Shown piece after piece: positions 1 to 46,222 of a DNA stretch of 56,156 bases. Below the pieces are notes generated by a model. The model was not told the origin of the DNA. It saw nothing but the letters and a program-made list of their open reading frames with translations, and did no database searches. A program made the position numbers and the translations under genes. Within the stretch, counting starts at the first letter, position 1, and each line of letters opens with the position of its first letter. Source of the DNA: Tubiluchus corallicola (taxonomy: Eukaryota > Animalia > Priapulida); NCBI GenBank assembly GCA_030141605.1, contig JAQGDQ010002419.1, positions 1 through 56,156 on the forward strand. Reading direction: 5' to 3'.

Positions 1-299
1 ACATAACCTACACAAGATACTTTTCCCTCTTCGTTTACAAGTAGACGAAACAAAAATTTTTCTTTTTTCCTTTTTTTATATTTATAGGCAAATAAAAGTG
101 TTTCTAATTCCTGATTAATATAGTTAATAGAAGTTTTCAGTTTAGGTAATTGAGTTGGAACCGAAAGTGTTTCTTCCCCTTCTGATAGATGCTTAAGCAA
201 ATTACAATCATTACTATCATTATTAAAATAGTAGTATGTTTTTTGTGAAAAGAGGTTGATGCTATTAGATAATATGAGAATGAGCACTAATTTTTTCAT
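1..299 (-). CDS. Partial (runs off window edge) secreted hypothetical protein, probable orphan immunity protein
   Basis: Read manually: ATG at 299, MKKLVLILILSNSINLFSQKTYYYF...FRLLVNEEGKVSCVGY, open to position 1. Signal-peptide-like N-terminus; lies directly after the orphan toxin remnant. Not in the ORF track. Confidence 0.6.
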   Translation of the reverse strand, partial: MKKLVLILILSNSINLFSQKTYYYFNNDSNDCNLLKHLSEGEETLSVPTQLPKLKTSINYINQELETLLFAYKYKKRKKEKFLFRLLVNEEGKVSCVGY

Positions 300-318
300 T
301 AATTTATAGTTTTTGATT

Positions 319-632
319 TCACCATTTCCATCTATAATTTTAAGAGCATCTGCTGGGTCTATTGAGCTAAATGGACCCACAGAAATATTTATTCCATCAC
401 CAGTAGCGGAAGAGCGTCCCCACCAATCATCTTTTGTAGATGCAGAATTTACATTAACTTCTGTTCCACTAAAACCAGTCACTATATCTTGTAAATTTGC
501 TAACCCTCCAAAGAAATACCCCCGGTTTTGTAGTTTAGAATTCCCCAACTTACCGAAGTATCCTCATTCACCCTGACTGAAATTGTAAGAACCAAAGCCC
601 AAACTCATTGAAAAATCCGTTTGCCCTCCACT
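319..632 (-). pseudogene. Orphan Rhs toxin C-terminal fragment (decayed)
   Basis: Close copy of 3398-3714 in the Rhs gene (SGGQTDFSMSLGFGSYNFSQGE...DALKIIDGNG). Has TGG->TGA stop at 564-566, W->R, and H->R in the WWGHSS motif; truncated before the Cys motif. Confidence 0.85.
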
Positions 633-711
633 ATTAATATCCTAATACACCTGTAATATATAAAATATTAGTAGAAACTCTTATTATACATTGCATATTA
701 TTTTTAATTAT

Positions 712-1227
712 TTATTTGAATTTAATTTCTTTCTCACGTGAAGGAAAAATAATGAATAGACCATCATTACTAATTGTTACTACTATAGCTCCATAAAGAC
801 GCTTATCTGTTATAGCGTTAAATTTTTTTATATTTCTCTTTGAAGGATAAGTAAGTTTTGTCTTTTCCGGTAAAAGCCTATTTACAAAATCTTCATTGGG
901 ACTAATGTAAAATTCTTTGTTCTCTTCTATAATATTTAAGAAACTTCCTTGATAAATAACACCTTTCTTTATAAGGGTGTCTTGTGTTAGATATTTATCC
1001 GATTTTATATAAAAAAGATAATAAACAAAAAAAGTATCATTTGAATGTTCTACAACATAATACGTCGGAAAAAAAGAACGACACTTGACAAAATAATGAC
1101 TTGTATCCGTAAGATATATTTTGTCTATTTCTATATATCTATTGTTTTGGCTAAAACAATCGTATCCAAATAAATGTAAAAAGATAAATAACTTAATAAT
1201 TGATAATAGGTGCTGCATACATTCCAA
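712..1227 (-). CDS. Putative immunity protein, copy 1 (allele A)
   Basis: 171 aa, signal-peptide-like N-terminus, paralogue of the gene overlapping the toxin end; unique C-terminus GAIVVTISNDGLFIIFPSREKEIKFK. Confidence 0.75.
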   Translation of the reverse strand: MECMQHLLSIIKLFIFLHLFGYDCFSQNNRYIEIDKIYLTDTSHYFVKCRSFFPTYYVVEHSNDTFFVYYLFYIKSDKYLTQDTLIKKGVIYQGSFLNIIEENKEFYISPNEDFVNRLLPEKTKLTYPSKRNIKKFNAITDKRLYGAIVVTISNDGLFIIFPSREKEIKFK

Positions 1228-1359
1228 TTTGTCTTGTTAATAATTGAAGATTTAAAAATAATTACCTCCACTATTAATATCCTAATACACCTCTAATATA
1301 TAAAATATTAGTAGAAACTCTTATTATACATTGTATTATTTTTAATTATTTATTTGAAT

Positions 1360-1863
1360 TTAAATACTTTCACGTAAACAATAAATAAAGAATCGACCAT
1401 CATTACTAGTTTTTACTGCTATAGTTCCATAAAGACGCTTATCTGTCATAGCGTTAAATCTTTTTATATTTCTCTTTGAAGGATAAGTAAGTTTTGTCTT
1501 TTCCGGTAAAAAGCTATTTACAAAATCTTCATTGGGACTAATGTAAAATTCTTTGTTCTCTTCTATAATATTTAAGAAACTTCCTTGATAAATAACACCT
1601 TTCTTTATAAGGGTGTCTTGTGTTAGATATTTATCCGATTTTATATAAAAAAGATAATAAACAAAAAAAGTATCATTTGAATGTTCTACAACATAATACG
1701 TCGGAAAAAAAGAACGACACTTGACAAAATAATGACTTGTATCCGTAAGATATATTTTGTCTATTTCTATATATCTATTGTTTTGGCTAAAACAATCGTA
1801 TCCAAATAAATGTAAAAAGATAAATAACTTAATAATTGATAATAGGTGCTGCATACATTCCAA
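1360..1863 (-). CDS. Putative immunity protein, copy 2 (A/B chimera, C-terminal 2-nt deletion)
   Basis: Same as copy 3 except for a 2-nt deletion near 1370 that changes REKVFKFK to RESI*. Confidence 0.72.
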   Translation of the reverse strand: MECMQHLLSIIKLFIFLHLFGYDCFSQNNRYIEIDKIYLTDTSHYFVKCRSFFPTYYVVEHSNDTFFVYYLFYIKSDKYLTQDTLIKKGVIYQGSFLNIIEENKEFYISPNEDFVNSFLPEKTKLTYPSKRNIKRFNAMTDKRLYGTIAVKTSNDGRFFIYCLRESI

Positions 1864-1987
1864 TTTGTCTTGTTAATAATTGAAGATTTAAAAATAATTA
1901 CCTCCACTATTAATATCCTAATACACCTCTAATATATAAAATATTAGTAGAAACTCTTATTATACATTGCATATTATTTTTAATTAT

Positions 1988-2503
1988 TTATTTGAATTTA
2001 AATACTTTCTCACGTAAACAATAAATAAAGAATCGACCATCATTACTAGTTTTTACTGCTATAGTTCCATAAAGACGCTTATCTGTCATAGCGTTAAATC
2101 TTTTTATATTTCTCTTTGAAGGATAAGTAAGTTTTGTCTTTTCCGGTAAAAAGCTATTTACAAAATCTTCATTGGGACTAATGTAAAATTCTTTGTTCTC
2201 TTCTATAATATTTAAGAAACTTCCTTGATAAATAACACCTTTCTTTATAAGGGTGTCTTGTGTTAGATATTTATCCGATTTTATATAAAAAAGATAATAA
2301 ACAAAAAAAGTATCATTTGAATGTTCTACAACATAATACGTCGGAAAAAAAGAACGACACTTGACAAAATAATGACTTGTATCCGTAAGATATATTTTGT
2401 CTATTTCTATATATCTATTGTTTTGGCTAAAACAATCGTATCCAAATAAATGTAAAAAGATAAATAACTTAATAATTGATAATAGGTGCTGCATACATTC
2501 CAA
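1988..2503 (-). CDS. Putative immunity protein, copy 3 (A/B chimera)
   Basis: N-terminal variable patches match copy 1; C-terminal patches match copy 4. Confidence 0.75.
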   Translation of the reverse strand: MECMQHLLSIIKLFIFLHLFGYDCFSQNNRYIEIDKIYLTDTSHYFVKCRSFFPTYYVVEHSNDTFFVYYLFYIKSDKYLTQDTLIKKGVIYQGSFLNIIEENKEFYISPNEDFVNSFLPEKTKLTYPSKRNIKRFNAMTDKRLYGTIAVKTSNDGRFFIYCLREKVFKFK

Positions 2504-2627
2504 TTTGTCTTGTTAATAATTGAAGATTTAAAAATAATTACCTCCACTATTAATATCCTAATACACCTCTAATATATAAAATATTAGTAGAAACTCTTAT
2601 TATACATTGCATATTATTTTTAATTAT

Positions 2628-3143
2628 TTATTTGAATTTAAATACTTTCTGACGTAAACAATAAATAAAGAATCGACCATCATTACTAGTTTTTACTGCT
2701 ATAGTTCCATAAAGACGCTTATCTGTCATAGCGTTAAATCTTTTTATATTTCTCTTTGAAGGATAAGTAAGTTTTGTCTTTTCCGGTAAAAAGCTATTTA
2801 CAAAATCTTCATTAGGACTAATGTAAAATTCTTTGTTCTCTTCTATAATATTTAAGAAACTTCCTTGATAAATAACACCTTTCTTTATAAGGGTGTCTTG
2901 TGTTAGATATTTATCCCAAAATAAATTATAAAAATAATAAACAAAAAAAGTATCATTTGAATGTTCTACAACATAATACCTTGGAAAAAGCATAGGACAC
3001 TTGACAAAATAATGACTTGTATCCGTAAGATATATTTTGTCTATTTCTATATATCTATTGTTTTGGCTAAAACAATCGTATCCAAATAAATGTAAAAAGA
3101 TAAATAACTTAATAATTGATAATAGGTGCTGCATACATTCCAA
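2628..3143 (-). CDS. Putative cognate immunity protein, copy 4 (allele B)
   Basis: Overlaps the 3' end of the Rhs toxin gene, the usual toxin-immunity coupling; unique patches CPMLFPRY and YFYNLFWDK. True start may be the ATG at 3134. Confidence 0.8.
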   Translation of the reverse strand: MECMQHLLSIIKLFIFLHLFGYDCFSQNNRYIEIDKIYLTDTSHYFVKCPMLFPRYYVVEHSNDTFFVYYFYNLFWDKYLTQDTLIKKGVIYQGSFLNIIEENKEFYISPNEDFVNSFLPEKTKLTYPSKRNIKRFNAMTDKRLYGTIAVKTSNDGRFFIYCLRQKVFKFK

Positions 3144-6100
3144 TTTGTCTTGTTAATAATTGAAGGTTTAAAATATGGGGATGAAGATTAAGGGGAAGTG
3201 TTGGTACTCCTACTGACCATAATGACCTTGAAACGTGATTAACACAACTAAATCCCAGTGCATTCCATTTTAATTCACCAACACCCCATAATCCATCTCC
3301 TAATTGTATATTATTAGTCATTTTCTGCATCATTTTAGAATTGACGTTTTGTAATTTTATCACCCAAGTTCCATCATTATTTGGAAAGTTAGGATAATCA
3401 CCATTTCCATCTATAATTTTAAGAGCATCTGATGGGCTCTCTATTGGGGAAGCTGGACCCACAGAAATATTTATTCCATCACCAGTAGCGGAAGAGTGTC
3501 CCCACCAATCATCTTCTGTAGATTCAGAATTTACATTAACTTCTGTTCCACTAAAACCAGTCACCATATCTTGTAAATTTGTTAACCCTCCAAAGAAATA
3601 CCCCCAGTTTTGTAGTTTAGAATTCCCCGACTTACCGAAGTATCCCCATTCACCCTGACTGAAATTGTAAGAACCAAAGCCCAAACTCATTGAAAAATCC
3701 GTTTGCCCTCCACTCAACAAATGATTACCTCCACTATTTATGCTAGAACCACCCGCAATAGCCAAAGTATTCGCAAAAGGAATGCCACTACCTGCTATAG
3801 CTGCTCCTGTCACCGCACTTGCTCCTCCTATTATATACCCAAACATTTCCCAACCTTTAGCATCATTAGCCTCTCCTATCTTGTAGCCACTATATCCTCC
3901 TATTATTGCTCCTACAACGGCTGCTGCTAAAAATATCCACTCCCCATCAGGATCTACAAACATCATAGGGCTATTGCCCATAGCTTGGTAAGGTGAGTGC
4001 ATCTGCAAAGCAGGATCTACTGCAAACCACCTTCCCAAATTAGCATCGTACTGTCGTGCGTGAAAATCGTGCAAGTTAATATTAAAATACTCCAAATGCT
4101 CCTTGCCCGTGTAGAGGTATTGGCTTTTTACATTATCAGGTAGTTCATTTCTACTTAGTTTCTCTATCGTTTGTCCATAAGGGTAGTAAGCCGTTTCTTG
4201 TAGCACCTCGCCCTTGTTGTCAGCAACTACTCGTGTATGCCCCAAGTGGTCGGTGAGTAACACTGCCTTTGTGTCCTCTTCCTCACCCTTCAAGGTATAG
4301 CCTAAAGGGTTACTCACAAGTACAAGCGTATCATTAATATACAGATACGCACCTTGATAATCGTATTTTAGCAAGAGGCTATCGTTTTTGTTAAATATCT
4401 CACGTCTTAAAAGTGAGCCATCCGCTATGTAGGTGTTTACTATCTTTCCTTTGCCTACTACCTCCATTGTATCAGGTAGGTTGATGTCGTTGTAGCTAAT
4501 ACGTAGTCCCTTGTAGCTATCCTCCACCAAGTTACCCAACTCATCATAAGTATAAGTGCCTAGCACTTCTTCGGGTGTTTGGTCTTTTTCATCGTGCGTT
4601 CTGCGTAGGTTCTCTTGTATGGCAAGGGTGTCTTTTAGGTCTATAATGCCGTCACCATCCGCATCCATATAGCTAAACTGTGGGGTACTGGTAATAGTTG
4701 TGTAGGGCTTCCACTCCGTGCCTTGCTCATCTTCGTCCCTTGGGGTGGCTGTGCTTCCATAGTGCAAGCCCAATGGCAATATGTCGGCTGGCTCTACTAA
4801 GCCGCTATTGTCCATATCACCCGGATATACTGTTATCTTTTGCAGGCTTTTACGGTGTAGAGTGGTGAGTTGGTTGCCCGTGTATTCATACTCCAAATCA
4901 TCCAAGTCGCCATACACTTCATTACGTAGATGTCCCTTGCGGTGTAGGGTAGTAATGTTCCCGTGTTTGTCGTAAGAGTAAGCTGTGTTGTAAGTGTTCT
5001 CCTCTTTTGTGTCTTGGTAGTAGATAGCTCTTGTCAGTTGGTTAGCATCGTCATAAGAGAAGGCATAGCCTGATAGGGGTGTGTTTTTGGTCTTCCACTC
5101 CATAGCTGTAATGTTGCCGTTGTACATAGGGGTGTTGCTCATATACTCGTGAGGCTCGTCATACTCTATCCTTTCGTAAAAAAGCTGTTCGTTTTTGTCG
5201 TTGTTAGTTTCTATTTGGGTAAGGCGGTAGTGGAAGTCGTAATGGTAGTTTGTTCTTATTTGTCCTTCATACAGTCGTTCATAGCTTTTGTTGCCTTTTT
5301 CATCGTAGCGGTAATAGGCTATTTCATAGGTGTTTTTGTCTCCCTGCTCTTGGTAGTGGATGGATTTCAACATGTCGTTGTGGTAGTATTGGTAATCCTT
5401 ACGTGCAAAGTGTTGCTTGTCAAAGTCTAAGAAGTTTTTGTAGGTAAATAGTTGTCTTACTCTGCCATCGAAATGGTAGTTGGTAAATACTGCGTCTATT
5501 CCGCCTATGTTGTTGGAGGAGAAGGATTGTACTACTCTGTTGTATTTGTCGTAGTATATTACGCTTTCTATCCATTGGTCGGTGCCAAGTATGCGGGTTC
5601 GTGTGCCTGTTACTTGTGTCTTTACGTTGTGATAGGGCTTGCCAAGGGGTTCGTAGGGTGGTGCTGACTGTGCAAAGGGGAAGTCGTAGTCGTCGTAGTG
5701 GGTTTCTGATAGGGGTATCTTTTTTCCGTCTTTTTTTATGCCTGTGGCTATTACGCGGCTGTAGCGGTCGTAGTCTATGTAGGAGGTGTTGCCTTCTGTG
5801 TCTTCTTCTTCTATCAGTCTGTCTAAGTGGTCGTAGCTAAGGTGTATGGTACCTGCTTGTGGTATGTGTTTGCGGATAAGGCGTCCTTTTTTGTCGTGGA
5901 TGAATTGATAGACGTAATGGTGATTGTTGATATCTCCTTTGGATAGTGGGGGGAGTATGGCGGTAAGGTTGCCATAGTGAAAGTCGTAGTAGTAGAGTGT
6001 GGTTAGGGTTTCTTTGTTTATCTGGCTTTCTCTTTTGAATAGTTGACCTTTGTATGAGGTGTATGTGGTGTGTTGTATGCCTTGAGGGTCGGTGGTACTG

Positions 6101-6663
6101 ACTATGCTTATGTAGCCGGGGGGGTATTTTTTGTCTTCGTATTTTTCGGTGAATGCGTCATATTCTTTGTGTAGGAAGATGTCGGTGTTGGCGTAGCGTT
6201 CAATTTTGGTAGTGTGGTTTGTGCCTATTTGGTATTTCTGTCCAAAGCCACCTTGTTCTATTACTTGACCGCGTGGGTTGAATATGCTTTGTGCGCTGGG
6301 TATGTCTGTGTGGGCTTGGTTTAGTATGTTTTCCCAGTTGTGTAGGTAGTCGCCTTTGATGTTGAGTTGCATTGGCATATAGCTAAAGGGTTGTCTGCCT
6401 GCTATGTCGTATTTATGAAATTCTATGTGGTCGTTTTGGTAGATGGAGGCGTTCAGGTGGTTGGTTTGTAGGGGGCGGTCGGCTCCATCGGTGTAGATAA
6501 TGGTGGTTGAGGCTGCTGCTGGGTTGGTGGTATTGCTTAGCTCATAGGCACTCATCCCTGATACTTTTGCTCGTTTTATGCGCACGTAGTTTTGGTCTCG
6601 GCTCTGCGGGTACAGAACGCTGCACAAGTGCAGAAAGGCCAAGAGTAAAGCAATGGGTCTCAT
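3109..6663 (-). CDS. Rhs-repeat core toxin (DUF6443-like N-terminus, YD repeats, dockerin-like insert, His/Cys toxin tip)
   Basis: Signal peptide; YxDGxxRPLQ N-terminal motif; YNGNI motif; core motifs LTDHLGHTRVV, YYPYG, YLYTGKE, ARQYDANLGRWFAVDP and PYQAMGNSPMMFVDPDG cleavage signature; Gly/Ala-rich hydrophobic segment followed by a variable C-terminus. Confidence 0.93.
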   Translation of the reverse strand: MRPIALLLAFLHLCSVLYPQSRDQNYVRIKRAKVSGMSAYELSNTTNPAAASTTIIYTDGADRPLQTNHLNASIYQNDHIEFHKYDIAGRQPFSYMPMQLNIKGDYLHNWENILNQAHTDIPSAQSIFNPRGQVIEQGGFGQKYQIGTNHTTKIERYANTDIFLHKEYDAFTEKYEDKKYPPGYISIVSTTDPQGIQHTTYTSYKGQLFKRESQINKETLTTLYYYDFHYGNLTAILPPLSKGDINNHHYVYQFIHDKKGRLIRKHIPQAGTIHLSYDHLDRLIEEEDTEGNTSYIDYDRYSRVIATGIKKDGKKIPLSETHYDDYDFPFAQSAPPYEPLGKPYHNVKTQVTGTRTRILGTDQWIESVIYYDKYNRVVQSFSSNNIGGIDAVFTNYHFDGRVRQLFTYKNFLDFDKQHFARKDYQYYHNDMLKSIHYQEQGDKNTYEIAYYRYDEKGNKSYERLYEGQIRTNYHYDFHYRLTQIETNNDKNEQLFYERIEYDEPHEYMSNTPMYNGNITAMEWKTKNTPLSGYAFSYDDANQLTRAIYYQDTKEENTYNTAYSYDKHGNITTLHRKGHLRNEVYGDLDDLEYEYTGNQLTTLHRKSLQKITVYPGDMDNSGLVEPADILPLGLHYGSTATPRDEDEQGTEWKPYTTITSTPQFSYMDADGDGIIDLKDTLAIQENLRRTHDEKDQTPEEVLGTYTYDELGNLVEDSYKGLRISYNDINLPDTMEVVGKGKIVNTYIADGSLLRREIFNKNDSLLLKYDYQGAYLYINDTLVLVSNPLGYTLKGEEEDTKAVLLTDHLGHTRVVADNKGEVLQETAYYPYGQTIEKLSRNELPDNVKSQYLYTGKEHLEYFNINLHDFHARQYDANLGRWFAVDPALQMHSPYQAMGNSPMMFVDPDGEWIFLAAAVVGAIIGGYSGYKIGEANDAKGWEMFGYIIGGASAVTGAAIAGSGIPFANTLAIAGGSSINSGGNHLLSGGQTDFSMSLGFGSYNFSQGEWGYFGKSGNSKLQNWGYFFGGLTNLQDMVTGFSGTEVNVNSESTEDDWWGHSSATGDGINISVGPASPIESPSDALKIIDGNGDYPNFPNNDGTWVIKLQNVNSKMMQKMTNNIQLGDGLWGVGELKWNALGFSCVNHVSRSLWSVGVPTLPLNLHPHILNLQLLTRQIGMYAAPIINY
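4593..4836 (-). other. Dockerin-like domain inserted in the Rhs core
   Basis: VYPGDMDNSGLVEPADILPLGLHYG...YMDADGDGIIDLKDTLAIQENL: two DxDxxGxxxxxD Ca-binding loops each followed by a helix, between the conserved GNQL and YTYDxxGN core motifs. Confidence 0.75.
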
Positions 6664-6679
6664 CTCTTTTATTGTTTGT

Positions 6680-8947
6680 TTATTTAACTCTCATTATAAA
6701 GGCTAATACGTAGTAGGGAGGTATAATATCAAAATTATCAGTAGTTACTTTGTCTGCTGGCGATTTTAACCCGTCCTCTCCTCCATTGCTTACTCTACCA
6801 CTAAAAGAACTATTCGGGTGGGTGTGTCTATCTTCATTATTCTCAGATGTAGTAGTAGCATCTCTGGTTTCATGAACTCCTCTATCAGAGCTCCTGCTAC
6901 CTCCTGTCTTTCTATTAGATGGAGTGGATTCATAAGTATGTGTATGACTCCCTGAAGAGGTTATATGTATACTTGCGTCATTGCCTCTTACAGAATGATG
7001 ATGTTTAGGAATATGATTCTTAGATAATCTAAATGTAGCTGTAGAGCTACTGCTGCCTCCTTCTGCATTCACATTGTTATAATCACCACTGGCAGCATCA
7101 TACGCCACAATAAACCTACCACTTAAGTTGGGGGTCGTTATGAGTGAACCATTAATATCCGTGTCTGTTCTACCATCACACAAAGCCCACCCATCAGGTA
7201 TAGTATTAGGGTCTCCGCTCCACATTATAATGCCTCCTATGGGTATGGTGCCGTAGCCTACAAATTGTCCTTGTGTTTCAATATTGTCTTCTGCTATTAT
7301 TTTGCCTTCTGTGGCAATATCATTGGCAGTTTGTATGCTTTCTACAAAAAGGGTATCTACTTCTACATTGGAAGATATTACTCCATCTACCCTTACTACT
7401 TCACTTACTATTAATGTATCAGCAATAATGCTACTTGTTTCTAAGTTTTCTACTTTCACATAGTTTTGTTCAAAGTCGCCCTCTATGAGTGTGTTGGTTC
7501 CACTGCCTATCATTAGTTTGTTGCTTTCGTTATTTAGGTTCTGCCCTACTTTGTTACCTATTACTATGTTGTTGTAGCCATTGTTCCCTTGTGCTGCTTT
7601 GTCTCCTATGTATATATTGCTACCACCTGTTGTATTGCTTTTGCCTGCTTCGTTGCCAATAAACACATTGCCACTAGCCGACAAGCTATTTAGCCCTGCA
7701 CGGTAGCCTATAGCTATGTTGTCATTGTTGGAAGTAGCATCTGGGTTTATACCTTGCAGTGCCTCTGTGCCAATAACTACATTTCGCTCTCCACTGCTTT
7801 TTTCGGCTGCTTTGCTACCTATCACCACACTATAATTGTTTGCTCCTTCTCGACTAGCGTATTTTCCTATGACTACTGCACCTGTGCTGTTTTTTGCTTT
7901 GGATGCTTTACTACCTACAATTACATTATCAGAGGATAGTGTATATTTCCCTGCCTCGTCGCCTACAATTACATTGTGTGAGCCAGCGGAATTTAATTGC
8001 CCTGCCTCTGTACCTATCATTACATTAGAGGTAGAGGCTTGTGTGGTGTTTTGTCCTGCTCTTTTACCTACAAAGGTGTTGCGTTCGCCTTGTTCTCCAC
8101 TGTTAATCTTTTCTGAGCCTATCAATACGTTGGTAGTATCTATCTCTATACTGCCTGCTATCATATCTTCTAAGGCTTGATTGTTGAGACGGTAAGGCTC
8201 GTTCCACGCTCCATAAGTAGTATCGCCATTTATATCTATTTCTATAAGGCGCAACTTTGCCCATAGGTCGCCTTCCTTTCGTTCTAAGGTCCAATTAGAA
8301 GTAGCCGCACTATCAGGAGCATACATCTTTTCAACTGAGCAAGGGTCTATGGTTACCTCCAATTTACCATCCACTATTTGCAGTGTATTACCCAATACTA
8401 CGCCTCCTCTGGTGCTATGGCTAGCAATAGGTAGTTCATAATAGTTGGCATTGTTTTCTACCGAAAGTAGTTTGGCCAACAAACTATCAGCAAAGTTATT
8501 GTCCGAGTATGTAGCACGATGCTCTATGCCTAGTAGCTTTTGATAGAGGCTATCTATAAAGTTATGCTCAGTGTAGTTCAGACTGTCTAACTTGATTTTA
8601 AGAACGTAAGTAAAATTTTCTTCGGAGTACTTAATACTGTCTAACTTTTCTTTGTGAGAAGTTGTGAAGTTGTGGTCGGTTTGTGAGGTGGCTCTTAGGT
8701 AGATAACACCTTCGCCTTGTTGCCCTTGATAGATTTCTAATCCATCCTCGCCTTCTGCTTTTATCTCATAATTGTAGGTAGCATTGATAAGGTCTTTAAA
8801 ATCCTGTCCATTGGGTTTACTACCATCTTGAAACTTGGAGTGTAATTCACTGGGGGTTTTTCTCTCTATTTGAGAATAAGCAGTGGTGTTAAGGAACACA
8901 AAAGCAATAGCAACTGCAAAAAATTTCACTGTATTTTTCATTATCAA
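6680..8947 (-). CDS. Secreted tail-fibre-like / trimeric adhesin protein with phage tail-collar-like C-terminus
   Basis: Signal peptide; N-terminal ELHSKFQDGSKPNGQDFKDLIN; four NF..KL repeats ending ANYYELPIASHSTRGGV; about 14 YadA-head-like NxxIGxxAG repeats; collar motif IPIGGIIMWSG..IPDGWALCDG..TPNLSGRFIV and terminal PPYYVLAFIMRV. Confidence 0.8.
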   Translation of the reverse strand: MIMKNTVKFFAVAIAFVFLNTTAYSQIERKTPSELHSKFQDGSKPNGQDFKDLINATYNYEIKAEGEDGLEIYQGQQGEGVIYLRATSQTDHNFTTSHKEKLDSIKYSEENFTYVLKIKLDSLNYTEHNFIDSLYQKLLGIEHRATYSDNNFADSLLAKLLSVENNANYYELPIASHSTRGGVVLGNTLQIVDGKLEVTIDPCSVEKMYAPDSAATSNWTLERKEGDLWAKLRLIEIDINGDTTYGAWNEPYRLNNQALEDMIAGSIEIDTTNVLIGSEKINSGEQGERNTFVGKRAGQNTTQASTSNVMIGTEAGQLNSAGSHNVIVGDEAGKYTLSSDNVIVGSKASKAKNSTGAVVIGKYASREGANNYSVVIGSKAAEKSSGERNVVIGTEALQGINPDATSNNDNIAIGYRAGLNSLSASGNVFIGNEAGKSNTTGGSNIYIGDKAAQGNNGYNNIVIGNKVGQNLNNESNKLMIGSGTNTLIEGDFEQNYVKVENLETSSIIADTLIVSEVVRVDGVISSNVEVDTLFVESIQTANDIATEGKIIAEDNIETQGQFVGYGTIPIGGIIMWSGDPNTIPDGWALCDGRTDTDINGSLITTPNLSGRFIVAYDAASGDYNNVNAEGGSSSSTATFRLSKNHIPKHHHSVRGNDASIHITSSGSHTHTYESTPSNRKTGGSRSSDRGVHETRDATTTSENNEDRHTHPNSSFSGRVSNGGEDGLKSPADKVTTDNFDIIPPYYVLAFIMRVK

Positions 8948-8986
8948 ATTCTGTTTTATTGGTGTATATTTATATTTTTTTCATTT

Positions 8987-11900
8987 TCAATTCTCTGTTA
9001 CATATCTTATATGAAAAGTAGTGGCAGTATCGTTTCTAATATACATTTGTCCTATTCCTAACTCTTCTATGTCCAAAGGGTCGTAGGAGGCTTTGTAGTT
9101 ATACTGATATTGTTCCAGAGCGTCTTCATCTTCGTTTCCTATGTTCGAAAGTCTACCAAAATCGTCATAACCATATTTTATAGTCTGCTCTTGTGAAGAA
9201 ACTTCTTGTTGCAGTTGTAGTAGGTTGGTGTATGCATAATTAGAAACATACTTACCTGCATCTACAGAGTGTGTTTTGGGTAGATTACTCGAGGTGTAAG
9301 AATAGGAAATAGGCACGGCATCTTTACCAGTATATTTCAGTATGTTGCCTTTGTTGTCGTATTGGTTGAAGGTGGTTTGTAACTCATAATTATCTGCAAG
9401 GGTATTGTAAGTTTCTATGCTTTCTACAATGTAGTCAGGGTCTTCATTGCTTCCTAATACATAGTTGATTTTTTGTCCTGATAGGAGTTTCCCGTTTTTT
9501 CTTATCTCTTGCTGTACTGGGGCAATAATATGCTTGTCCTCAAAGTATTGTTTTATAGGCTGATTGCTCTGATGCACATAAGTAATAGAAGTTTCTGTGG
9601 TCTCTACATTATCACTGGCAATTACTTTTACAGGTAGGTTTTTGTATTTACTGTATTTTTCATATTCATAGGTGGTAGTGGTAGTGATAGGCTGCCTTGC
9701 ACTTTCGGCATAATCTTCGCGAATAGTCCCTTCCAAAGTTTTAGTAACTGCAGCTATATCATAGGTGCTATGACGTAAAAGATTATCATTTTTATCTATC
9801 TGTACATTGTAGCCTCCAACAGAGTTGCTCCATTTTAAACTATAATTGTTAGAAGTTTTATTGAGTAAGTTATCTTTATTGTCATAAGTTTCTTGTTGAT
9901 AGAGATAAGTCCTATACACATCTCTGTCTGTAATGGTAGAAAAAAGCAGGTAGTAAGAACTAGAAGGATCTTGGCCTGCTATTACATCAGGTTTATTGTC
10001 TTCATCTTTGGCTGTTTTAAAGTAAGAAATAGTTTTGCCTTGTTCTTTGTTTGTCTGCATTACCTTGCCAAAACCTACTATACCCCCGCCTGTGGCTAAC
10101 TGTTCGCCTCCGCCCTTAGGATAAAGTAAATAATGATAATAGTCCCAAAAACGTCCAACCTCATACTTTCTATTTCTGTTGAAAGGTATAATACCTTCCT
10201 CATAGTTATAAGTTATTTCTTCCATTACCTCTCCTTTTTCGTCATCCGTAGCTTTTATATTTTTTATAAAACAACCATATTCACTAGTATAGTAGTCGAA
10301 GGTTTTGTGCATTCCTGTAGGGTAGGTAATGGAGGAAAGCAAACCATTCTCTATATTGTTAAGCGAAGGGGCATAATTATATTCTTCGTACTCGTTTATA
10401 CCCTCGAATTTTACTCTTAACATTTCCTTTAACGATGATGAATATTCTATATTCCGTTCTTCATTTTTTTCATTGCTGTCTATATCTAGCTCACTGGGGT
10501 ATGTAAAGTTGTAAAAAGTAGATTTAGGACTTGTAAAATCTACATAGTAACCATAAAAATTCTGTTTGTAAGAAAGTCTATAAGGTAGTTTACTAGGGTT
10601 AATGTAATTAAATTTAAAAGGATTGATATTATCTCCATAGATGTCTTTCTCCTCTATTTCTGTAAGGAACATCCTTTGTGTAGTACCTGCTTGTTCTATA
10701 AAGAAACTACCACTGTGCCATGCATTTGTTTTAAAACGAAATGCAGGCGAGGAGGTAGTAACAGAATTATGATAATTATAAGTAAATGTATAGCTTTTAA
10801 TAAAATCATCATCTTTCGTTTTTATACGTATTTCTCTAAGAAAACTACCTACCTCATCTATCATATCTTTTCTGTTTTCTACTGTAAAGAATTCTACTTT
10901 GTGGTTGCCTCCTTCTACCTCTTGCAACATAGGGGTATGGGCTGTAACCAAACTTTTAGCAATTCCTATTTCATTACGAGGAACTGGGGACTCATATCTG
11001 TAAAACTTATTATCCTCTATTTTGGGATAAGAATTCTGAATACAAACACCTGACAGCCTACTGCCTTGATAATACCGACTTGTTTGTTTTTTATAAGAAA
11101 AGGTTACTTTATCATTAAAAGCAGGTTGTATTATCTCTATTAAATGCCAAGAGGACCTATAACTATACGATTGACTACTATTGATTACACGTTTTTCCTG
11201 CAAATCCAAAGAATAAGCGGGAATTTTCTTGATTACTATCCCCAGAAAATTTCTCTTCCAAATTTCCTCAAACTTTGAAGTATAACGTACAATTTCACTT
11301 GTATTTTCTATTTCCATCTCTTCTATGGCTTCTTCTTCATAGCCAAATCTGTAAATAGTGCCATCTTCGGCAGTAATAGTAAAGCCATTAATGGTTGAAG
11401 AAGAAGCATCCATCTCTATTTTCAGGTTGTTATCGTTGGCAAGAATATTAATTCTGTTAGAAGCGGCTCTTCTGCTAATAGTGAATTTACCGTTTAAGTT
11501 GCCACAAGAAAAATAAAATATATCAGGGTGGAGATCGTTATCTTTCATTTCTTCGACTGATGCCCAATTATCCCAATAGCCTATCTTTTCTTTTGTTTCA
11601 TTTTTACTATCTACTACACCGTCATTATTATCTTCAATAATAGATTTTACTTGGGTTGTTTTCTCATCGGGGTAGCCTTTTACTACACGAGTAATCACTC
11701 CGCTTGCTTGTAAGTTCCATCCCATACCTACCCAAGAAGCTAGGTCATCTACTCTTACTCCGTTGGAATGATACACCAAGCTAATGGGCACGGATAGGTG
11801 GGTACTTTTCAGGGTGTACAAAGGAATGCCTACATTAATAGCTCCTGTGTAAAGGCTAGAGGCGGTAGAGGCAGAACGTATCAGCCCTGCTACTGTGGGT

Positions 11901-12160
11901 GAGGGTACAGTAACCAAACTACTACTACCAGACAAGGCTCCGAACTCGTCACTGCTCATTGAAGTAGGAACACCTTTATGTAAGGATTTTAACATCAAAT
12001 GACTGGTAGTATCTTCTTCTGCTGCTGTATCTTCCTGTTCAGCTGGAAGATAGGGCTGGGCAGAAGTCAAGCTAAAAGAGAAAAGAAAAAAGAAAAAAAC
12101 ACTCTTTCCTCTCCCATAGATACAAAATAAAGACAAAAATATAAATGCAAGTGTTTTCAT
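8987..12160 (-). CDS. YD-repeat protein, N-terminal half of a split Rhs/TcB-like shell
   Basis: Signal peptide; PSPTVAGL..SLYTGAINVGIPLY..PISLVYHSNGVRV..ASWVGMGWNL..GVITRVVKGYPDE; PDIFYF; LSSITYPTG; terminal YGYDDFGRL. Confidence 0.85.
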   Translation of the reverse strand: MKTLAFIFLSLFCIYGRGKSVFFFFLFSFSLTSAQPYLPAEQEDTAAEEDTTSHLMLKSLHKGVPTSMSSDEFGALSGSSSLVTVPSPTVAGLIRSASTASSLYTGAINVGIPLYTLKSTHLSVPISLVYHSNGVRVDDLASWVGMGWNLQASGVITRVVKGYPDEKTTQVKSIIEDNNDGVVDSKNETKEKIGYWDNWASVEEMKDNDLHPDIFYFSCGNLNGKFTISRRAASNRINILANDNNLKIEMDASSSTINGFTITAEDGTIYRFGYEEEAIEEMEIENTSEIVRYTSKFEEIWKRNFLGIVIKKIPAYSLDLQEKRVINSSQSYSYRSSWHLIEIIQPAFNDKVTFSYKKQTSRYYQGSRLSGVCIQNSYPKIEDNKFYRYESPVPRNEIGIAKSLVTAHTPMLQEVEGGNHKVEFFTVENRKDMIDEVGSFLREIRIKTKDDDFIKSYTFTYNYHNSVTTSSPAFRFKTNAWHSGSFFIEQAGTTQRMFLTEIEEKDIYGDNINPFKFNYINPSKLPYRLSYKQNFYGYYVDFTSPKSTFYNFTYPSELDIDSNEKNEERNIEYSSSLKEMLRVKFEGINEYEEYNYAPSLNNIENGLLSSITYPTGMHKTFDYYTSEYGCFIKNIKATDDEKGEVMEEITYNYEEGIIPFNRNRKYEVGRFWDYYHYLLYPKGGGEQLATGGGIVGFGKVMQTNKEQGKTISYFKTAKDEDNKPDVIAGQDPSSSYYLLFSTITDRDVYRTYLYQQETYDNKDNLLNKTSNNYSLKWSNSVGGYNVQIDKNDNLLRHSTYDIAAVTKTLEGTIREDYAESARQPITTTTTYEYEKYSKYKNLPVKVIASDNVETTETSITYVHQSNQPIKQYFEDKHIIAPVQQEIRKNGKLLSGQKINYVLGSNEDPDYIVESIETYNTLADNYELQTTFNQYDNKGNILKYTGKDAVPISYSYTSSNLPKTHSVDAGKYVSNYAYTNLLQLQQEVSSQEQTIKYGYDDFGRLSNIGNEDEDALEQYQYNYKASYDPLDIEELGIGQMYIRNDTATTFHIRYVTEN

Positions 12161-12173
12161 TTGTTAAAACCTC

Positions 12174-12948
12174 TTAGTTTAAGATAATTTTCTTACTGAC
12201 AATAAAATCATTATAGACCGTTTGTATCAAATAAATACCTTTGGGAAGAAAAGATAAATCAAAAGTAGCTATATCTTTTTTGGGTACGGTGGTTCGCACC
12301 ACAGACCCCTCCTCTCATTGCTCTAACTTCTACTATCTCTTTTTCTACCCCGTATTCATATTTGATATTTACAATACCATTTGTAGGGTTAGGATAAAGT
12401 ATAAATTGATATAGCTCAGTGTTTTTCGAAAGGTGTTTCAAAGAATATTCGCCTATGTAAATAGTATCGGAAGTAGAAAGAAGAGGAATGGCTTCTCCTT
12501 TGTGATTGTTTGCCATATAAGGATGAGCAGACACAGAGATAAAGTCCTTGGTTAAACCCTCTTTTATCTTTACAAAAAGAGAGAGTACATTTTCTTTACT
12601 GTCTAAAAAAAAGTTCTCATTCAAACCTGTAACAGCATAACGCAGCAGCCCTTCACTTTGATTTTGTTGATATAGGTCAATATAATCCTTGCCTCGCTCT
12701 CCAAAAGTGCTGCCTGTGGAAAGTGCAATAGAATTAGTGTCCAAGTCCTGTGGGTTATAACGAATGTCAAAAGCTATACCATAAAGAAGTTCTATATTAT
12801 CTTGAGGGTAGAAATTAAAAACCACCACCTCATCCAAACGCTCACGAGATAAAACAGGAGTAGGAGTTTCTACTTTTAGCAGCTCTTGCGAGAAAACAGA
12901 ACAATTTAATAGAAAGAAAGATATTAAATTTAAGCAAAATAATCTCAT
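12174..12948 (-). CDS. Cohesin-like protein with T9SS type A C-terminal sorting domain (frameshift at ~12306-12315)
   Basis: Start MRLFCLNLISFFLLNCSVFSQ at 12948. Beta-sandwich with LYGIAFDIRYNPQ..GLLRYAVT..ANNHKGEAIPL, then LYPNPTNGIVNI. The shifted frame continues GSVVRTTVPKKDIATFDLSFLPKGIYLIQ..KKIILN* to 12174. The ORF track gives 12259..13032. Confidence 0.72.
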
Positions 12949-13001
12949 AAGACTAAAAGATTTTAAGAAATTAGGTGTAAAATATCTTAACTTAAAAAAC
13001 A

Positions 13002-13033
13002 CAAGTTTACATAAAAAAACTCTTTTGTACAAA
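13002..13033 (-). promoter_or_regulatory. Putative Bacteroidota sigma-A promoter of the Rhs operon
   Basis: Minus strand TTTG (13033-13030), 20 nt, TAAACTTG (13009-13002); one mismatch to TAnnTTTG; supports the 12948 start. Confidence 0.45.
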
Positions 13034-13282
13034 AAAATATATTAAGAATTAGCAATATATTCTAAGTAGTTTAAAACCATCCTTAAATTCAGTTACTGCT
13101 AAGTACAATACAAGTTTTAGAAACTTTCATCTTTTAGTTTTTGGCAATAAAAATAGGCAATGAATGAAAAATTAAATATTAGTATACCATTACCTTATTT
13201 TGTTATAAAGACTATCTTTGTAAAACTTAAATATTTAACTCCTATTTAACCTTTATTTATTAGTCAACACAAACAAGCTAAT

Positions 13283-14326
13283 ATGAACAAAAAAGTAAGT
13301 ATTAAAGATATTGAAAAAGAAACAGGTATTTCAAAAGGCACAATCCATAGAGTATTACACAAAACAGGCTATGTAGCAGACGGAACTAGAAAAAAGGTAC
13401 TACAAGCAGTAAAAAAATTAAACTACAAACCAAACTTACTTGCAAGCACATTAGCTTATAATAAAAAACGAACTTTTGCTACTTTAATTCCAGACCCTGC
13501 AGAAATTTCTTTTTGGAAAGATGTAGACAAAGGCTGTAAAAAAGCCATCAAAGAACTTTCTTTCTTTAATATAGATGTACAACGTTTCTATTTTAGCTTA
13601 AAAGACAATGACTTCGAAGAGCAAAGCCAAAACATTTTATCCATAAAAGACGTATCAGGAGTTGTATTTGTCCCTACCTTTAAAGAAGCATCTTACAAGT
13701 TCTCTTCACAATTGGAACGCCAAAAGGTTCCATTTATAAATATAAATGTGCACGACAGAAACCTCCCCTATATTGCCTATCTCGGACAAGATGCTTATGG
13801 AATAGGACAACAAGGAGCTTTTTTAATAAACTCTGTTGTTCCCGAAGGAAAAACTTTAATAACCAACTTATATTCACAAAATAAACACTCTATCTATAGA
13901 GAACGAAGAATAAAAGGATTCTCTGATTTTTATGGAAAAATAGGTAGAAAAAACGATATTATACTATTTGAAGCCTCTACCAACAATGAAAAAAACTTAG
14001 TAAAATCATTAAAAGAAGTACTTGATAAACATACGATTAGCTCTATATTTATTAATAACTCGCGAGGATATCTAATCGGTAATTTTCTGAAACAACACAA
14101 TTATAAAGGCATATACTTTGTTGGAATGGATTTAATAAAAGAAAACATCTCATTGATGAAAGAAGACTATATTGATTTTCTTATCTCACAAAAGCCTGAA
14201 ACACAAGGAGAACAAGGACTAATGCTTTTGTTTGATGTGCTAATAAAAAAACAAGCTATTGAAAAAATACAATATCTCCCCATAGATTTAATAAACAGAT
14301 ACAACTTAGAATATTATCACATATAA
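13283..14326 (+). CDS. LacI-family transcriptional regulator
   Basis: N-terminal HTH VSIKDIEKETGISKGTIHRVLH..YKPNLLASTLA plus a sugar-binding domain. Confidence 0.93.
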   Translation: MNKKVSIKDIEKETGISKGTIHRVLHKTGYVADGTRKKVLQAVKKLNYKPNLLASTLAYNKKRTFATLIPDPAEISFWKDVDKGCKKAIKELSFFNIDVQRFYFSLKDNDFEEQSQNILSIKDVSGVVFVPTFKEASYKFSSQLERQKVPFININVHDRNLPYIAYLGQDAYGIGQQGAFLINSVVPEGKTLITNLYSQNKHSIYRERRIKGFSDFYGKIGRKNDIILFEASTNNEKNLVKSLKEVLDKHTISSIFINNSRGYLIGNFLKQHNYKGIYFVGMDLIKENISLMKEDYIDFLISQKPETQGEQGLMLLFDVLIKKQAIEKIQYLPIDLINRYNLEYYHI

Positions 14327-35177: not shown

Positions 35178-37681
35178 ATGAGAATTAAGTTATTCTTCTT
35201 CATTGTAATGATTTTATATATATCTAATGGGAAATCACAGACCAATAGTACCCGATTAGAGAATGACTGGGAATTTTTAAAAAGTGACTTAGGAGGTATT
35301 TGGGAAGCAGTTCGTTTACCCAAAGTGCCAAAAACATCCAATACCTCAAAATCATCTTCCCCCGAATCAGTCCCACTTTGGAAGGATGTGAAACTACCTC
35401 ATTGTTTCAACGATTTTGATGCTGTAGACCCTTATACGAACTATTACCAAGGGCCGGGCTGGTATAAGACAACTATACAGATTGACAACCCATATAAAAA
35501 CGGAAGAACACTATTGCACTTTGAAGGAGCTGGGCAAAAAACAGAAATATATATCTATACTACAAAAGTAGGAGAACATATTGGAGGCTATGACGAATGG
35601 ACAATAGATATTACAGAAGCTGTAGAAGAATTTAAAAAACACGAAAGATTTGATAAAGACTATGAAGGGAAAATACCCATTATTATTCGTTGTGATAACT
35701 CCCGCGACTTAGAAATGATACCCTCTGACTTATCCGACTTTAACCTATATGGAGGAATACACCGTTATTTAAACTTGGTATATGTTAATGAAGTAAGTAT
35801 AAAAAACTTAGCCATTAACCCTAGTGTTGATGCACAAAGTAAAAAAAGTCAAGTAAAAATAGAAGGAACATTATACAATCCGCAAAATGTACCAACCAAA
35901 AACATTAAAATAGAAATCCACTCTCCCAATAATAAAAAAATACAAACTATAGACATACCTTCTTCTCAAGTTAAGAACAACACATTTTCAACATCATTTG
36001 TTATAAAAAAACCAAACTTATGGTCGCCTGAAAACCCTAATTTATACCAGTGTGTTGTTAAAATTGAGAACCCAAAAGGAATAGAAGAATATAAAGACAA
36101 TTTTGGGATAAGACATTTTGAGTTTATAGAAAAAGGACCTTTTAAATTAAATGGAGAAAGATTATTGTTGAGAGGAACACATAGGCACGAAGACCACACA
36201 AGTGTTGCTGCTGCTATGACAGAAGAAATGATGCGAGAAGAAATGATAATGATGAAAGAAATGGGAGTTAACTTTATTCGTTTAGGTCATTATCAGCAAT
36301 CAAGAATCATACTCAACCTATGCGATAGCCTTGGAATACTGGTATGGGAAGAAATTCCCTGGTGTAGAGGAGGACTGGGAGGTGAAAAATACCAACAGCA
36401 AGCCAAAAGAATGCTTGTCAATATGATAACACAGCATAAAAACCACCCTTCTGTAATTATTTGGGGGTTAGGAAATGAAAATGACTGGCCTAACGACTTC
36501 CCTGAATTTACTAAAGAAAACTTCGATGAAGAAAAAATACGAACCTTTATGAAAGAGCTGAACGACCTATCCCACAGCTTAGATGATAGCAGAAAAACGG
36601 CTATTCGTCGTTGCACTTTCTGTGCAGATATCGTAGATGTATATTCTCCCTCAATATGGGCAGGATGGTACAGAGGAAAATTTACTGACTACAAAGAAGT
36701 ATCTCGTAAAGAAATAGAAAAGGTAAACCATTTCTTACACGTAGAATGGGGAGCAAGCAATCACGCAAGGAGACACTCTGAAAACCCTGACAAAAATTTA
36801 GAAAATATAAAAACTGGAGAAGCAGATGAACGAGACGGAGACGCTTCCTTGGTTGGAGGAGACCCAAGAGCATCAAAAGATGGAGATTGGTCAGAAACTT
36901 ATGCTTGTAACCTGATAGATTGGCACTTAAAAGAACAAGAAACGATGCCTTGGCTAACAGGAACAGCCTATTGGCCTTTCAAAGACTTTTCCACACCCCT
37001 TCGCCCTGAAAATCCTGTGCCATATGTAAATCAAAAAGGAGTAGTTGAACGAGACCTTACCAAAAAAGAAGCATACTATGTTTTTCAATCCTACTGGACA
37101 GGAAAACCAATGGCACATATTTATGGACATACTTTTAAAACAAGGTGGGGAGAAGCAAACGAAAAAAGTTAATAAAAGTTTATTCAAACTGTGAAGAAGC
37201 AGAATTGATAGTAAACGGCAAAAGCTATGGTAAGAAAAAAAGAAACTCACAAGACTATCCTGCAGCAGGACTAAGGTGGAACGTGCAACTCAAAGAAGGA
37301 CAAAATGAAATAAAAACCATTGGATTCAAAAAAAATAAACCAGTGGCTACCGATAATATAATACAAAATTATCAAACAAATAAATGGGACAAACCATCCA
37401 AACTAGAAATAAGCAAGTATTACAAAGCAGAAAACGAATATTGGATAGAAGTAATAGCTAAAGACAATAAAGATATTCAATGCCTTGATGCTAAAAACTT
37501 TGTAGAGTTCGACATAACTGGAGATGGCACATTACTTGGAAACCTTGGCACATCAACAGGAGCATTAAAAGTGCAGTTATACAATGGGCGAGCCAAAATA
37601 GGCTTAAAACACAAAGAAGGAAAAAGTATAGTTTCTGTAAAGTCCGAAGGATTAAAAACAGTATTTATTAACATCGAATAA
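35178..37681 (+). CDS. GH2 glycoside hydrolase, split by a frameshift at ~37162-37167
   Basis: LLHFEGAGQ, LRGTHRHED, FIRLGHYQQ, WGLGNEND. ORFs 35178-37172 and 37145-37681 join (GEANEKKLIKVYSNC) if one A is added to the A6 run. Confidence 0.88.
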
Positions 37682-43936: not shown

Positions 43937-46222
43937 TTATAAGAAAAGTATTTTAGTTACAGCTTTTTCTTGTCCATCGTGGTCTACCACATAGATAAGG
44001 TATATTCCAGAAGTTATCCTTTGTCCACTTTGCTTGCACCCATTCCACGTAGCCTGTCCACCAAGCGAAACAGTCTCATAAACAAGGTTGCCATTAATAT
44101 TTGTAATTTTCACATTGGTGTTTTCCTTCAAGCCAGTTATAGTTATTAGCCCTTCATAGTTTTCCCTTACGGGGTTAGGAAAAGCAAATATATCGTTATA
44201 ACTAGATTTCGGCTCAATGGCTTCTCCTCTGTATGAGGTTATACCATATGCTGTGGCTATGAATATTTCCCCAGTATTAGAATCTATAGCAATATCTTTA
44301 ATATCATTAGAGGGCAATGGGCTATTTTGTATATTAAAGTGTTCTAACTGTTTTTTTCCATCACCTGACATAAGGTATACGCCTGAATTTCTCGTGCCAA
44401 AACACTTTCTATCAGCACCATCTATAGCTATGGAGCTTACTATCTCCATTTCCAAAAGATAGCCAAATGTTCCATCATCATTTGACACAGATACCTTTTC
44501 TGCATAAGTGCCTCCTAAGGCTAACATCTCATAGGGGTGAAAATAGGTTAGCACTCCATTTTCTGTACCAAGCCATAAAATACCCTTTTTGTCCTGTTGC
44601 AAAGAGTAGACCTTGTTAGTCAAAACACCTCCCCCCTCTCCTCTTACTTTAGTCCTAATATATTCATCATCCGATTCTGTTTGCAAGGTAGCCCTATCAT
44701 TAAATATAAATAATTCGTCCCCATCATTTAATACTATCCATTTATCGTCATTGGCAGTATTTATCATTCTCCCAAAACTATCATTATTGTTCAAAATATT
44801 ATAATTATAGGCATACCATTGCTTGTTCGGAGTTTTTATTCCTATAGGAGTTGCACTATTAGAGTTTGTTACCCACAAATTGCCGTCCGTATCATAGGTC
44901 ATACTACCTACCTGCAACATTCCATTGATAGATGGCTCTAAGGGGGTATTAGTTTCATCCCACCTTGTTTTTGTCTGGTTATTTTGCAACTCTAAAATAC
45001 TGGTTTTGGCTGAAATATATAAATCATCGTTTTGGGGCAAAATATCTACTATATTACTTATTTCTGGATATTGGTAATCAGTCCATTGTTCGTTTTCAAA
45101 AATCGAAAATATATTGTTATTATTCGATATTACATATATCCTATCATCATAATATTTCAAATTTGCAGTACTATGCCGAGCAGGTGCATTGGGCTGTACA
45201 AATTGGGGCGTATTATCAAGCACTGATAGCTTTATCAATCCCTGCACACTATCAGCAATCCAAACAAACTCAGTATCATTCTGCTTGGCATCGACAGGTA
45301 CTCCCTCGTAGGTACTCTTATAGATAACCCTATCATTAGCATCTATCAGCAACACTATATCATCCGCACAAACAATAAGATTTTCCACACCCGTTTCTAT
45401 GGCTTTTACACTATTATATATAGTAGTTGAAGTAGTCCAAGTGTTGTTTTGATAAATATAAACAGTATCCTTATCACCTACTACTCCATTAGCGTACACT
45501 TTATTATTAAAACAGGTAACTATATTAAAAGTATCATTGGGATTTGGTATTGCAATATCTTTTTTCCACTCGTTGAAATCAGCCAAATTAGAATTGTTTA
45601 TACTACCCACATAAATACCTTCGCTGGTAGCTGCATAAATATTTTTATCAACAGAGCAATAAGCAATATCAAATAGTTGTAGAGCATTGTCTTCTTGGGT
45701 AAAATAATAGGTATCCTTTACCTCGCTCCTTTCCAAATCTAACAAAACTATTCCAAAATTAAAAGCCACATATACCACTCCTTCTATATATACAACCGTT
45801 TGAGGTTTTACTTCTTTTATATTACTTAATACAATATCAGGAATATTATCTATTGTTTTATCTGTAACAACATCTATATTACCATTCTCATACACTACTA
45901 TCAAAACATCCGAAGAGGCAATGTATTTTACCACCTCTATTTTATGCTCTGTTAAACCCTCTACTTTTGATAGAGTATTAATAGTATTATCAACAACATT
46001 GTAGTACAGCAAACCTCCTTCTGCCAAATAATATATTTTATTTCTGCCCACTTCTATTTGCTTCCCCTCATCATAATTAAAATGATTTCGCCATTCCTTC
46101 ACTCCTATTTGCGAAAAAACAATAGCTGACAACAACAGTAATCCTACAAGTAATAAGCTCCTTTTCACTTCAATTAGTGTTTCATATATAAATAACATAG
46201 GGGATATATCCTCCCTCTTCAC
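43937..46222 (-). CDS. porZ: T9SS component PorZ-like beta-propeller protein with CTD
   Basis: WRNHFNY, LSKVEGL, YENGNID, IAIDGADRK.FGT, NSPLPSN, AFPNPVRENYEG, SLGGQATWNG..SGIY. Confidence 0.85.
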   Translation of the reverse strand: MKREDISPMLFIYETLIEVKRSLLLVGLLLLSAIVFSQIGVKEWRNHFNYDEGKQIEVGRNKIYYLAEGGLLYYNVVDNTINTLSKVEGLTEHKIEVVKYIASSDVLIVVYENGNIDVVTDKTIDNIPDIVLSNIKEVKPQTVVYIEGVVYVAFNFGIVLLDLERSEVKDTYYFTQEDNALQLFDIAYCSVDKNIYAATSEGIYVGSINNSNLADFNEWKKDIAIPNPNDTFNIVTCFNNKVYANGVVGDKDTVYIYQNNTWTTSTTIYNSVKAIETGVENLIVCADDIVLLIDANDRVIYKSTYEGVPVDAKQNDTEFVWIADSVQGLIKLSVLDNTPQFVQPNAPARHSTANLKYYDDRIYVISNNNNIFSIFENEQWTDYQYPEISNIVDILPQNDDLYISAKTSILELQNNQTKTRWDETNTPLEPSINGMLQVGSMTYDTDGNLWVTNSNSATPIGIKTPNKQWYAYNYNILNNNDSFGRMINTANDDKWIVLNDGDELFIFNDRATLQTESDDEYIRTKVRGEGGGVLTNKVYSLQQDKKGILWLGTENGVLTYFHPYEMLALGGTYAEKVSVSNDDGTFGYLLEMEIVSSIAIDGADRKCFGTRNSGVYLMSGDGKKQLEHFNIQNSPLPSNDIKDIAIDSNTGEIFIATAYGITSYRGEAIEPKSSYNDIFAFPNPVRENYEGLITITGLKENTNVKITNINGNLVYETVSLGGQATWNGCKQSGQRITSGIYLIYVVDHDGQEKAVTKILFL

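Follow-up and report, generated by a model that had tools for sequence, protein, structure and literature searches.

A predicted cohesin with a T9SS sorting domain and a dockerin-like insert in an Rhs protein: a single-locus candidate for coupling a toxin to secretion

The cellulosomal anchoring proteins OlpA and OlpC of C. thermocellum (PDB 3ul4 and 4dh2) and CohA2 of C. acetobutylicum (6kgc) combine one cohesin with a surface-sorting tail, and the dockerin or dockerin-like module that belongs to them sits on a separate protein. A scaffoldin of Ca. Stygibacter, 3,755 aa long with tandem cohesins and a C-terminal sorting domain (CTD) as anchor, has dockerin-bearing hydrolases as clients, an arrangement inferred from sequence in the available part of that paper (PMC8542988). 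In Bacteroidota, T9SS cargo proteins ending in a dockerin-like module, a cohesin-like module and a CTD (P0001-P0032, L081-L103) carry both module families in one chain. Toxins have been connected with the same secretion system. In Apibacter most rhs genes adjoin T9SS type A genes (PMC8125069), and these loci and the TANFOR toxins (PMC7073777) place a toxin that has a signal peptide and no CTD beside a CTD gene. The available parts of the two papers propose T9SS export with no demonstration, name no linking module, and leave open how polymorphic toxins of Bacteroidota, whose C-terminus is the toxin domain, could use a system that recognizes its cargo by a signal at that end. Among the architectures listed for PT-TG polymorphic toxins are some with cohesin or dockerin domains, with no Rhs insert and no T9SS adaptor named in the text available (PMC13483458). 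Our search of the literature readable without subscription found no account of a cohesin-CTD gene paired with an Rhs toxin that contains a dockerin, and no published demonstration of piggyback export through T9SS.

The locus described here shares features with each of these systems and differs from all of them. Like OlpA, OlpC and CohA2, its first gene encodes a predicted cohesin fold (Z 12.7-13.5 to the three) with a surface-sorting tail, and a dockerin-like module is found on another protein; the tail, however, is a Gram-negative T9SS CTD, and identity in these rows is 7-13%. In contrast to cellulosomes, the dockerin-like module lies inside an Rhs shell and not at the terminus of an enzyme, and its calcium loops are 51 aa apart. 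There is a single cohesin and a putative toxin client, as against the tandem cohesins and hydrolases of Stygibacter, and the two modules are in two genes 7.6 kb apart, unlike the fused T9SS cargo, with which a common fused origin is unsupported.

The window, the whole stretch of 56,156 nt that was analyzed, probably comes from a member of the Bacteroidota, to which matches to SusC/SusD pairs, PorZ and gltD point. The gltD relatives are 57-65% identical (best 80 matches listed), and no close genome is among the matches listed. PorZ within the 56 kb of the window is an indication that the organism has a T9SS. Positions 13283-43834 (plus strand) form a large polysaccharide utilization region with a LacI regulator, two SusC/SusD pairs, uxuA, two alginate-lyase-family proteins, GH88-like and GH2 enzymes and a CBM96 protein. 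The region of interest was also found, as contigs, in three runs of one sample (X1, X2, and X3), which is probably the source of the window. Its features, with PorZ, are as follows.

12174..12948, minus strand: adaptor gene, with signal peptide, cohesin-like domain and T9SS type A CTD; 258 aa in the X1 frame
12889..12948, minus strand: aa 1-20, assigned by eye as a Sec-type signal peptide
12448..12888, minus strand: cohesin-like beta-sandwich, about aa 21-167, from structure searches and alignment
12177..12399, minus strand: T9SS type A CTD, split by the window's frame error
12306..12315, minus strand: purine tract in which the frame seems to shift; the X1 contig reads two additional bases behind 12310
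8987..12160, minus strand: YD-repeat protein, 1057 aa, first half of a two-gene YD and DUF6443-Rhs pair
6680..8947, minus strand: tail-fibre-like protein, 755 aa, containing Gly-rich repeats and, close to the C-terminus, a weak match to phage tail collar
3109..6663, minus strand: DUF6443 Rhs core protein, 1184 aa, with a signal-peptide-like start, a DPDG motif at aa 904-907 and a C-terminal domain after it
4555..4863, minus strand: 103-aa loop of the Rhs protein, aa 601-703, containing the dockerin-like module
4594-4830, minus strand: dockerin-like module, Rhs aa 612-690, with calcium-loop motifs at aa 616 and 667
3109..3939, minus strand: hydrophobic Gly-rich stretch and putative toxin domain of the Rhs protein
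712..3143, minus strand: four tandem, near-identical putative immunity genes, 167-171 aa, spaced 636-640 nt; role inferred from position
1..640, minus strand: orphan partial copy of the Rhs C-terminal region, then the start of another small gene
43937..46222, minus strand: PorZ, T9SS component (PF21544, 105 bits)

The first four genes, encoding the adaptor, the YD protein, the 755-aa protein and the Rhs protein, are tightly spaced on the minus strand with gaps of 13, 39, and 16 nt, and the adaptor gene heads the operon, as a sequence-only reading of this DNA had proposed. Profile scans detected a CTD in the adaptor and none in the YD protein, the 755-aa protein or the Rhs protein, and domain scans of the operon genes gave no sign of another way across the outer membrane. 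A promoter and terminator scan gave counts near those of shuffled controls (43 against 33.2 ± 5.3, and 8 against 6.7 ± 2.7).

The mature adaptor would begin with Gln if the signal peptide is cleaved after aa 20, as judged by eye; a Gln-start rule applies to Bacteroidota. The sequence-only reading had pointed to cohesin-like strands (LYGIAFDIRYNP and GLLRYAVT) in a domain at about 12457-12837, and both motifs are present in the minus-strand ORF that starts at ATG 12948. We searched 1.84 billion representative sequences with phmmer and obtained 32 matches at E ≤ 0.001, of which 31 were kept; P0015 was removed as a 25-aa repeat match without the family motifs. A fold model made from the 31 sequences reached a pLDDT of 78.9, with the first 8 residues of the domain absent from it, and a single-sequence model (pLDDT 60.4) was set aside. 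In the structure search with the model, cohesins took the top 19 of the best 50 rows (Z 13.5-9.0; best match rmsd 2.5 over 132 aligned residues), followed by the first non-cohesin at Z 8.4, and Foldseek and Atlas (0.95-0.96) also returned cohesin. The predicted structure thus supports a cohesin beta-sandwich fold for the adaptor domain, in agreement with the earlier suggestion, while the alignment moves its start to directly after the signal peptide, at about 12888 (aa 21). The Pfam Cohesin family PF00963 matches the adaptor with 15.2 bits, below the gathering cut-off of 24.1; among the homologues scanned, P0005, P0024, and P0025 exceed that cut-off on the whole-protein score. A word-based protein search returned no relative of the adaptor among 260 candidates, nor did a metagenome scan among 104 pattern matches.

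Directly before the cohesin, 28 of the 31 homologues have a dockerin-like two-loop module; the other three begin at or inside the cohesin. The adaptor of the window has no such module, which agrees with the stand-alone architecture and adaptor role put forward earlier. What had not been noticed is a candidate partner, a dockerin-like insert in the operon's own Rhs protein. We built a dockerin profile from 27 fused homologues, with the window sequence excluded, though the columns had been chosen by it, and compared it with all six frames of the window. The only match was the Rhs protein at about aa 609-699 (E 9.4e-23), and the cohesin and dockerin profiles each match once in 56 kb, both in the same operon; in 56 Rhs homologues the dockerin profile had no match. 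By alignment, the loop that holds the insert is 103 aa long, against 12-32 aa (median 26) in all 56 Rhs homologues. The 12-residue calcium-loop patterns at aa 616 and 667 are both intact and are the only two in the protein, and the helices that would go with them are read from the sequence. Pfam PF00404 gives the module 16.1 bits, below the cut-off of 22.9, and fused relatives also fall below it (14.1 and 15.4); there is a weak sequence match to the dockerin in PDB 9gvb (E 0.12). In some fused relatives (P0001, P0024) the dockerin is preceded by another cohesin-like domain, giving the order cohesin-dockerin-cohesin-CTD.

We looked for the same combination elsewhere. A search of 802 genomes with the dockerin and its flanks, scoring up to six candidates per genome, gave 33 matches in 31 genomes. 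Of these we examined 21 at dockerin loci and 2 at Rhs flanks, leaving aside 8 dockerin-only and 2 flank-only matches, and found no Rhs with a dockerin insert. Seen from the dockerin side, 19 of the 21 loci carry a cohesin in the same chain, and the other two are cut by contig ends. None of 80 YD-Rhs loci had a dockerin or a cohesin, and thus none an Rhs with the insert. Word-based protein searches yielded no dockerin region among 53 candidates and no insert in 56 protein matches to the Rhs region and flanks. In the metagenome scan, the Rhs region gave 2 weak loci among 558, neither with a profile match, and the Atlas search with the Rhs region returned generic Rhs clusters only (0.75-0.76).

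The adaptor would be a socket with an export tag and the operon's Rhs protein has the plug, which makes it likely that the socket clips onto the toxin. We therefore propose that the adaptor cohesin may bind the dockerin-like module of the Rhs protein and so export the CTD-less Rhs via T9SS as a piggyback passenger. In its favor, each module is here without its usual neighbor, yet both are in one operon. All four proteins of the head genes would enter the periplasm via Sec; the YD and Rhs proteins would build a shell around the toxin domain, with the dockerin loop pointing outwards to bind the cohesin with calcium; the CTD would draw the complex of adaptor and shell through the T9SS translocon; and after CTD removal the adaptor would keep the loaded shell at the surface, or leave with it. 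Judged from sequence, we put this reading at close to even chances. Against it, there is one locus only, both modules are below the Pfam cut-offs, and co-descent is unsupported. The locus is a single but specific candidate for a system in which cohesin and dockerin link an Rhs toxin to T9SS, and the link it may offer is separable, with a plug of 80 aa in the toxin shell and a socket of 150 aa on a CTD protein.

The two modules may instead not be partners at all. The cohesin-CTD protein would then anchor other dockerin proteins, and the Rhs dockerin would bind another cohesin, encoded at a second site in the genome or present on target cells, or be a calcium-binding passenger. For this genome our searches covered the 56-kb window, beyond which other cohesins and dockerins may be encoded, and the co-descent test gave no sign of one fused ancestor. 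Among 47 distinct fused dockerin-cohesin pairs, whose profile matches lie 2-22 aa apart, the identities of dockerins and cohesins to those of the window correlate with rho -0.46, a value subject to ascertainment bias; rho is 0.16 within 28 of the pairs and 0.14 within the other 19, where the true-pair medians are 0.80 and 0.34, respectively. In trees, the window cohesin adjoins one clade (support 0.985) and the window dockerin stands elsewhere (0.77-0.83). The dockerin is 35% and 37% identical to two groups, and the cohesin leans to one of them (25% versus 19%). An origin of the pair by the splitting of one fused gene is thus unsupported. It may be that cohesin and dockerin were acquired from separate donors, or that divergence has erased the signal. 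On the other hand, each module elsewhere shares a chain with the other, while here the two stand alone within a single operon, and neither occurs at any of 80 comparable loci. On balance we regard non-partnership as unlikely.

A second alternative accepts the pairing and makes it a surface tether: the Rhs shell would exit by another route, through the tail-fibre-like 755-aa protein, in vesicles or by lysis, and dock afterwards on the T9SS-anchored cohesin. The parts of cellulosomes assemble after secretion, which would fit such an order, and the YD-Rhs loci of other genomes bear on it from both sides. Within one order, 53 of 251 genomes have YD homologues, and 40 of the 90 matches were examined (first set); phylum-wide it is 44 of 351 genomes, with 40 of the 79 matches examined. 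Both sets were picked by score and flank length. In the first set, Rhs is downstream of YD in 38 of 40 loci, and Pfam found no CTD in the 23 nearest upstream genes scanned; seven of these are long leucine-rich-repeat genes directly before YD-Rhs (L109, L111, L117, L118, L122, L132, and L133) and one encodes a collar protein, which can be counted for a tether. Phylum-wide, 32 of 40 loci have no detected CTD gene directly upstream, by a home-made CTD profile that divergent tails may escape. Most YD-Rhs loci are therefore without a CTD gene at the head, and such toxins have other routes. The remaining 8 of 40 loci (6 genomes) do have a CTD gene directly before YD, so the cohesin-CTD gene of the window occupies the place of a CTD protein in a recurring type of locus. 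Seven of the eight have an Rhs of 1113-1151 aa and one a split Rhs; they are short, like the Rhs of the window, which argues against the tether, as do the lack of any other evident outer-membrane exit among the operon genes and the export of folded, very large proteins by T9SS, reported in the available text of PMC9251779. A tether alone seems to us improbable.

The eight upstream CTD genes differ from the cohesin adaptor and belong to a single family of repeat proteins about 530 aa long, with a contig end cutting off one member (L164, L165, L166, L168, L172, L173, L176, and L180; the repeats give weak beta-propeller matches). The locus draws attention to these genes, whose products are candidate T9SS carriers for CTD-less Rhs toxins. 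At L141, in the first set, the YD protein has a CTD fused at its C-terminus, a candidate direct route of the shell to T9SS, and at the related locus L140 the CTD is in a separate next frame.

Returning to export by the adaptor, the contigs hint at several tandem Rhs copies per adaptor. In X1, contig depth is 35-45 over the Rhs core including the insert and about 10-11 over adaptor and YD; in X2 it is 15-19 and 4-6. The Rhs core is thus at about three to four times the adaptor depth in two runs, a ratio that gives no copy number, and a contig joint leads from 6671 back to 4013. Variant letters among contigs at 3750-6671 go along with the raised depth. Together, depth, variants and joint suggest that additional Rhs copies lie in tandem, with C-termini of their own. 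In this Bacteroidota lineage a single CTD-tagged cohesin gene might then be shared by several Rhs cores, each bearing a dockerin but differing in its toxin end, and take their loaded shells across the translocon for display on the surface, an extension that we offer tentatively and would sooner doubt than expect.

In the window, the adaptor ORF runs from ATG 12948 on the minus strand for 229 codons and ends at 12259. The match to PF18962 is divided: this frame encodes its positions 1-34, whereas 42-74 come from the shifted one, which stops at 12174, and the frame changes in the purine tract at 12306-12315, just where the sequence-only reading had seen a broken sorting signal. With an X placed at the break to join the two frames, the CTD scores 37 bits with TIGR04183 (curated cut-off 23) and 39 bits with PF18962 (cut-off 27). 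The break had been ascribed to an assembly indel, a recent inactivation or a slippage switch for toxin export. A single X1 contig spans the site (1656 nt, depth 9.98, covering 11704-13357) with no substitutions and two extra bases, which make the adaptor length a multiple of three and give an open frame of 258 aa. A second X1 contig is identical to the window over 7456-11655, and the two otherwise agree with it over about 5.85 kb. The extra bases lengthen a two-base run at 12311-12312, and a six-G tract considered as the site of the frameshift was dismissed on this ground. X3 contigs do not span the site; those of X2 end at 12307 and restart at 12341. X2 contigs are short by 1-2 bases at at least 9 places, 8 of the 9 listed being at runs of 4-8, and X2 is presumably a long-read run; X1 appears to be a short-read run because its contig has a loose end at 11655 that we take to be adapter-like. 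Most likely the window retained an unpolished long-read error, and the frameshift is very likely an assembly error that is absent from the organism, in line with the first of the three options. The adaptor gene is then most likely intact, its product running from the signal peptide through the predicted cohesin fold to the type A CTD. Although the shifted allele is present in the window itself, and all runs are contigs of one sample, which drop rare variants so that a minor allele could escape X1, a frameshift real in part of the population, as slippage switch or recent inactivation that stops toxin export, is very improbable, given that the sole X1 contig over the site reads through it in frame and without a break, that the X1 contigs show no second allele, that the longest homopolymer in the tract is 4 in both alleles (slippage tracts are usually longer, phase-variable homopolymer or tandem tracts having about 7 or more), that X2 loses bases in runs throughout, and that a glycoside hydrolase gene at 35178-37681 is likewise split near an A run. 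We would set the idea of an on/off switch aside as a probable assembly error.

That GH2 gene lies in two frames, 35178-37172 and 37145-37681 (plus strand), near an A6 run at 37162-37167, with the C-terminal GH2 domains on the second piece; it is probably another assembly indel.

The Rhs locus itself has YD repeats, an Rhs-associated core, a DPxG motif, a variable C-terminus, downstream small genes and an orphan module. TIGR03696 scores 48.5 against a cut-off of 32.5 and TIGR01643 21.4 against 15.8, and PF20041 is also matched. Pfam and NCBIfam gave no family for the putative C-terminal toxin domain, and the putative immunity genes had no family match. In the C-terminal domain (3109-3720, minus strand) a His motif is followed by a Cys motif, which we take to recall permuted papain-like enzymes. 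GC content is 26% over 1-3108 and 43% for Rhs, and the first of the four putative immunity gene copies differs most. The orphan fragment at 1..640 is 95% identical to 3440-3714 of the Rhs C-terminal region and has a different end. The only strong PDB sequence matches of the Rhs protein are salivary gland surface proteins (8fjp and 9on3, E about 1e-21), which cover the Rhs core and the hydrophobic stretch after DPDG (3700-4340, minus strand).
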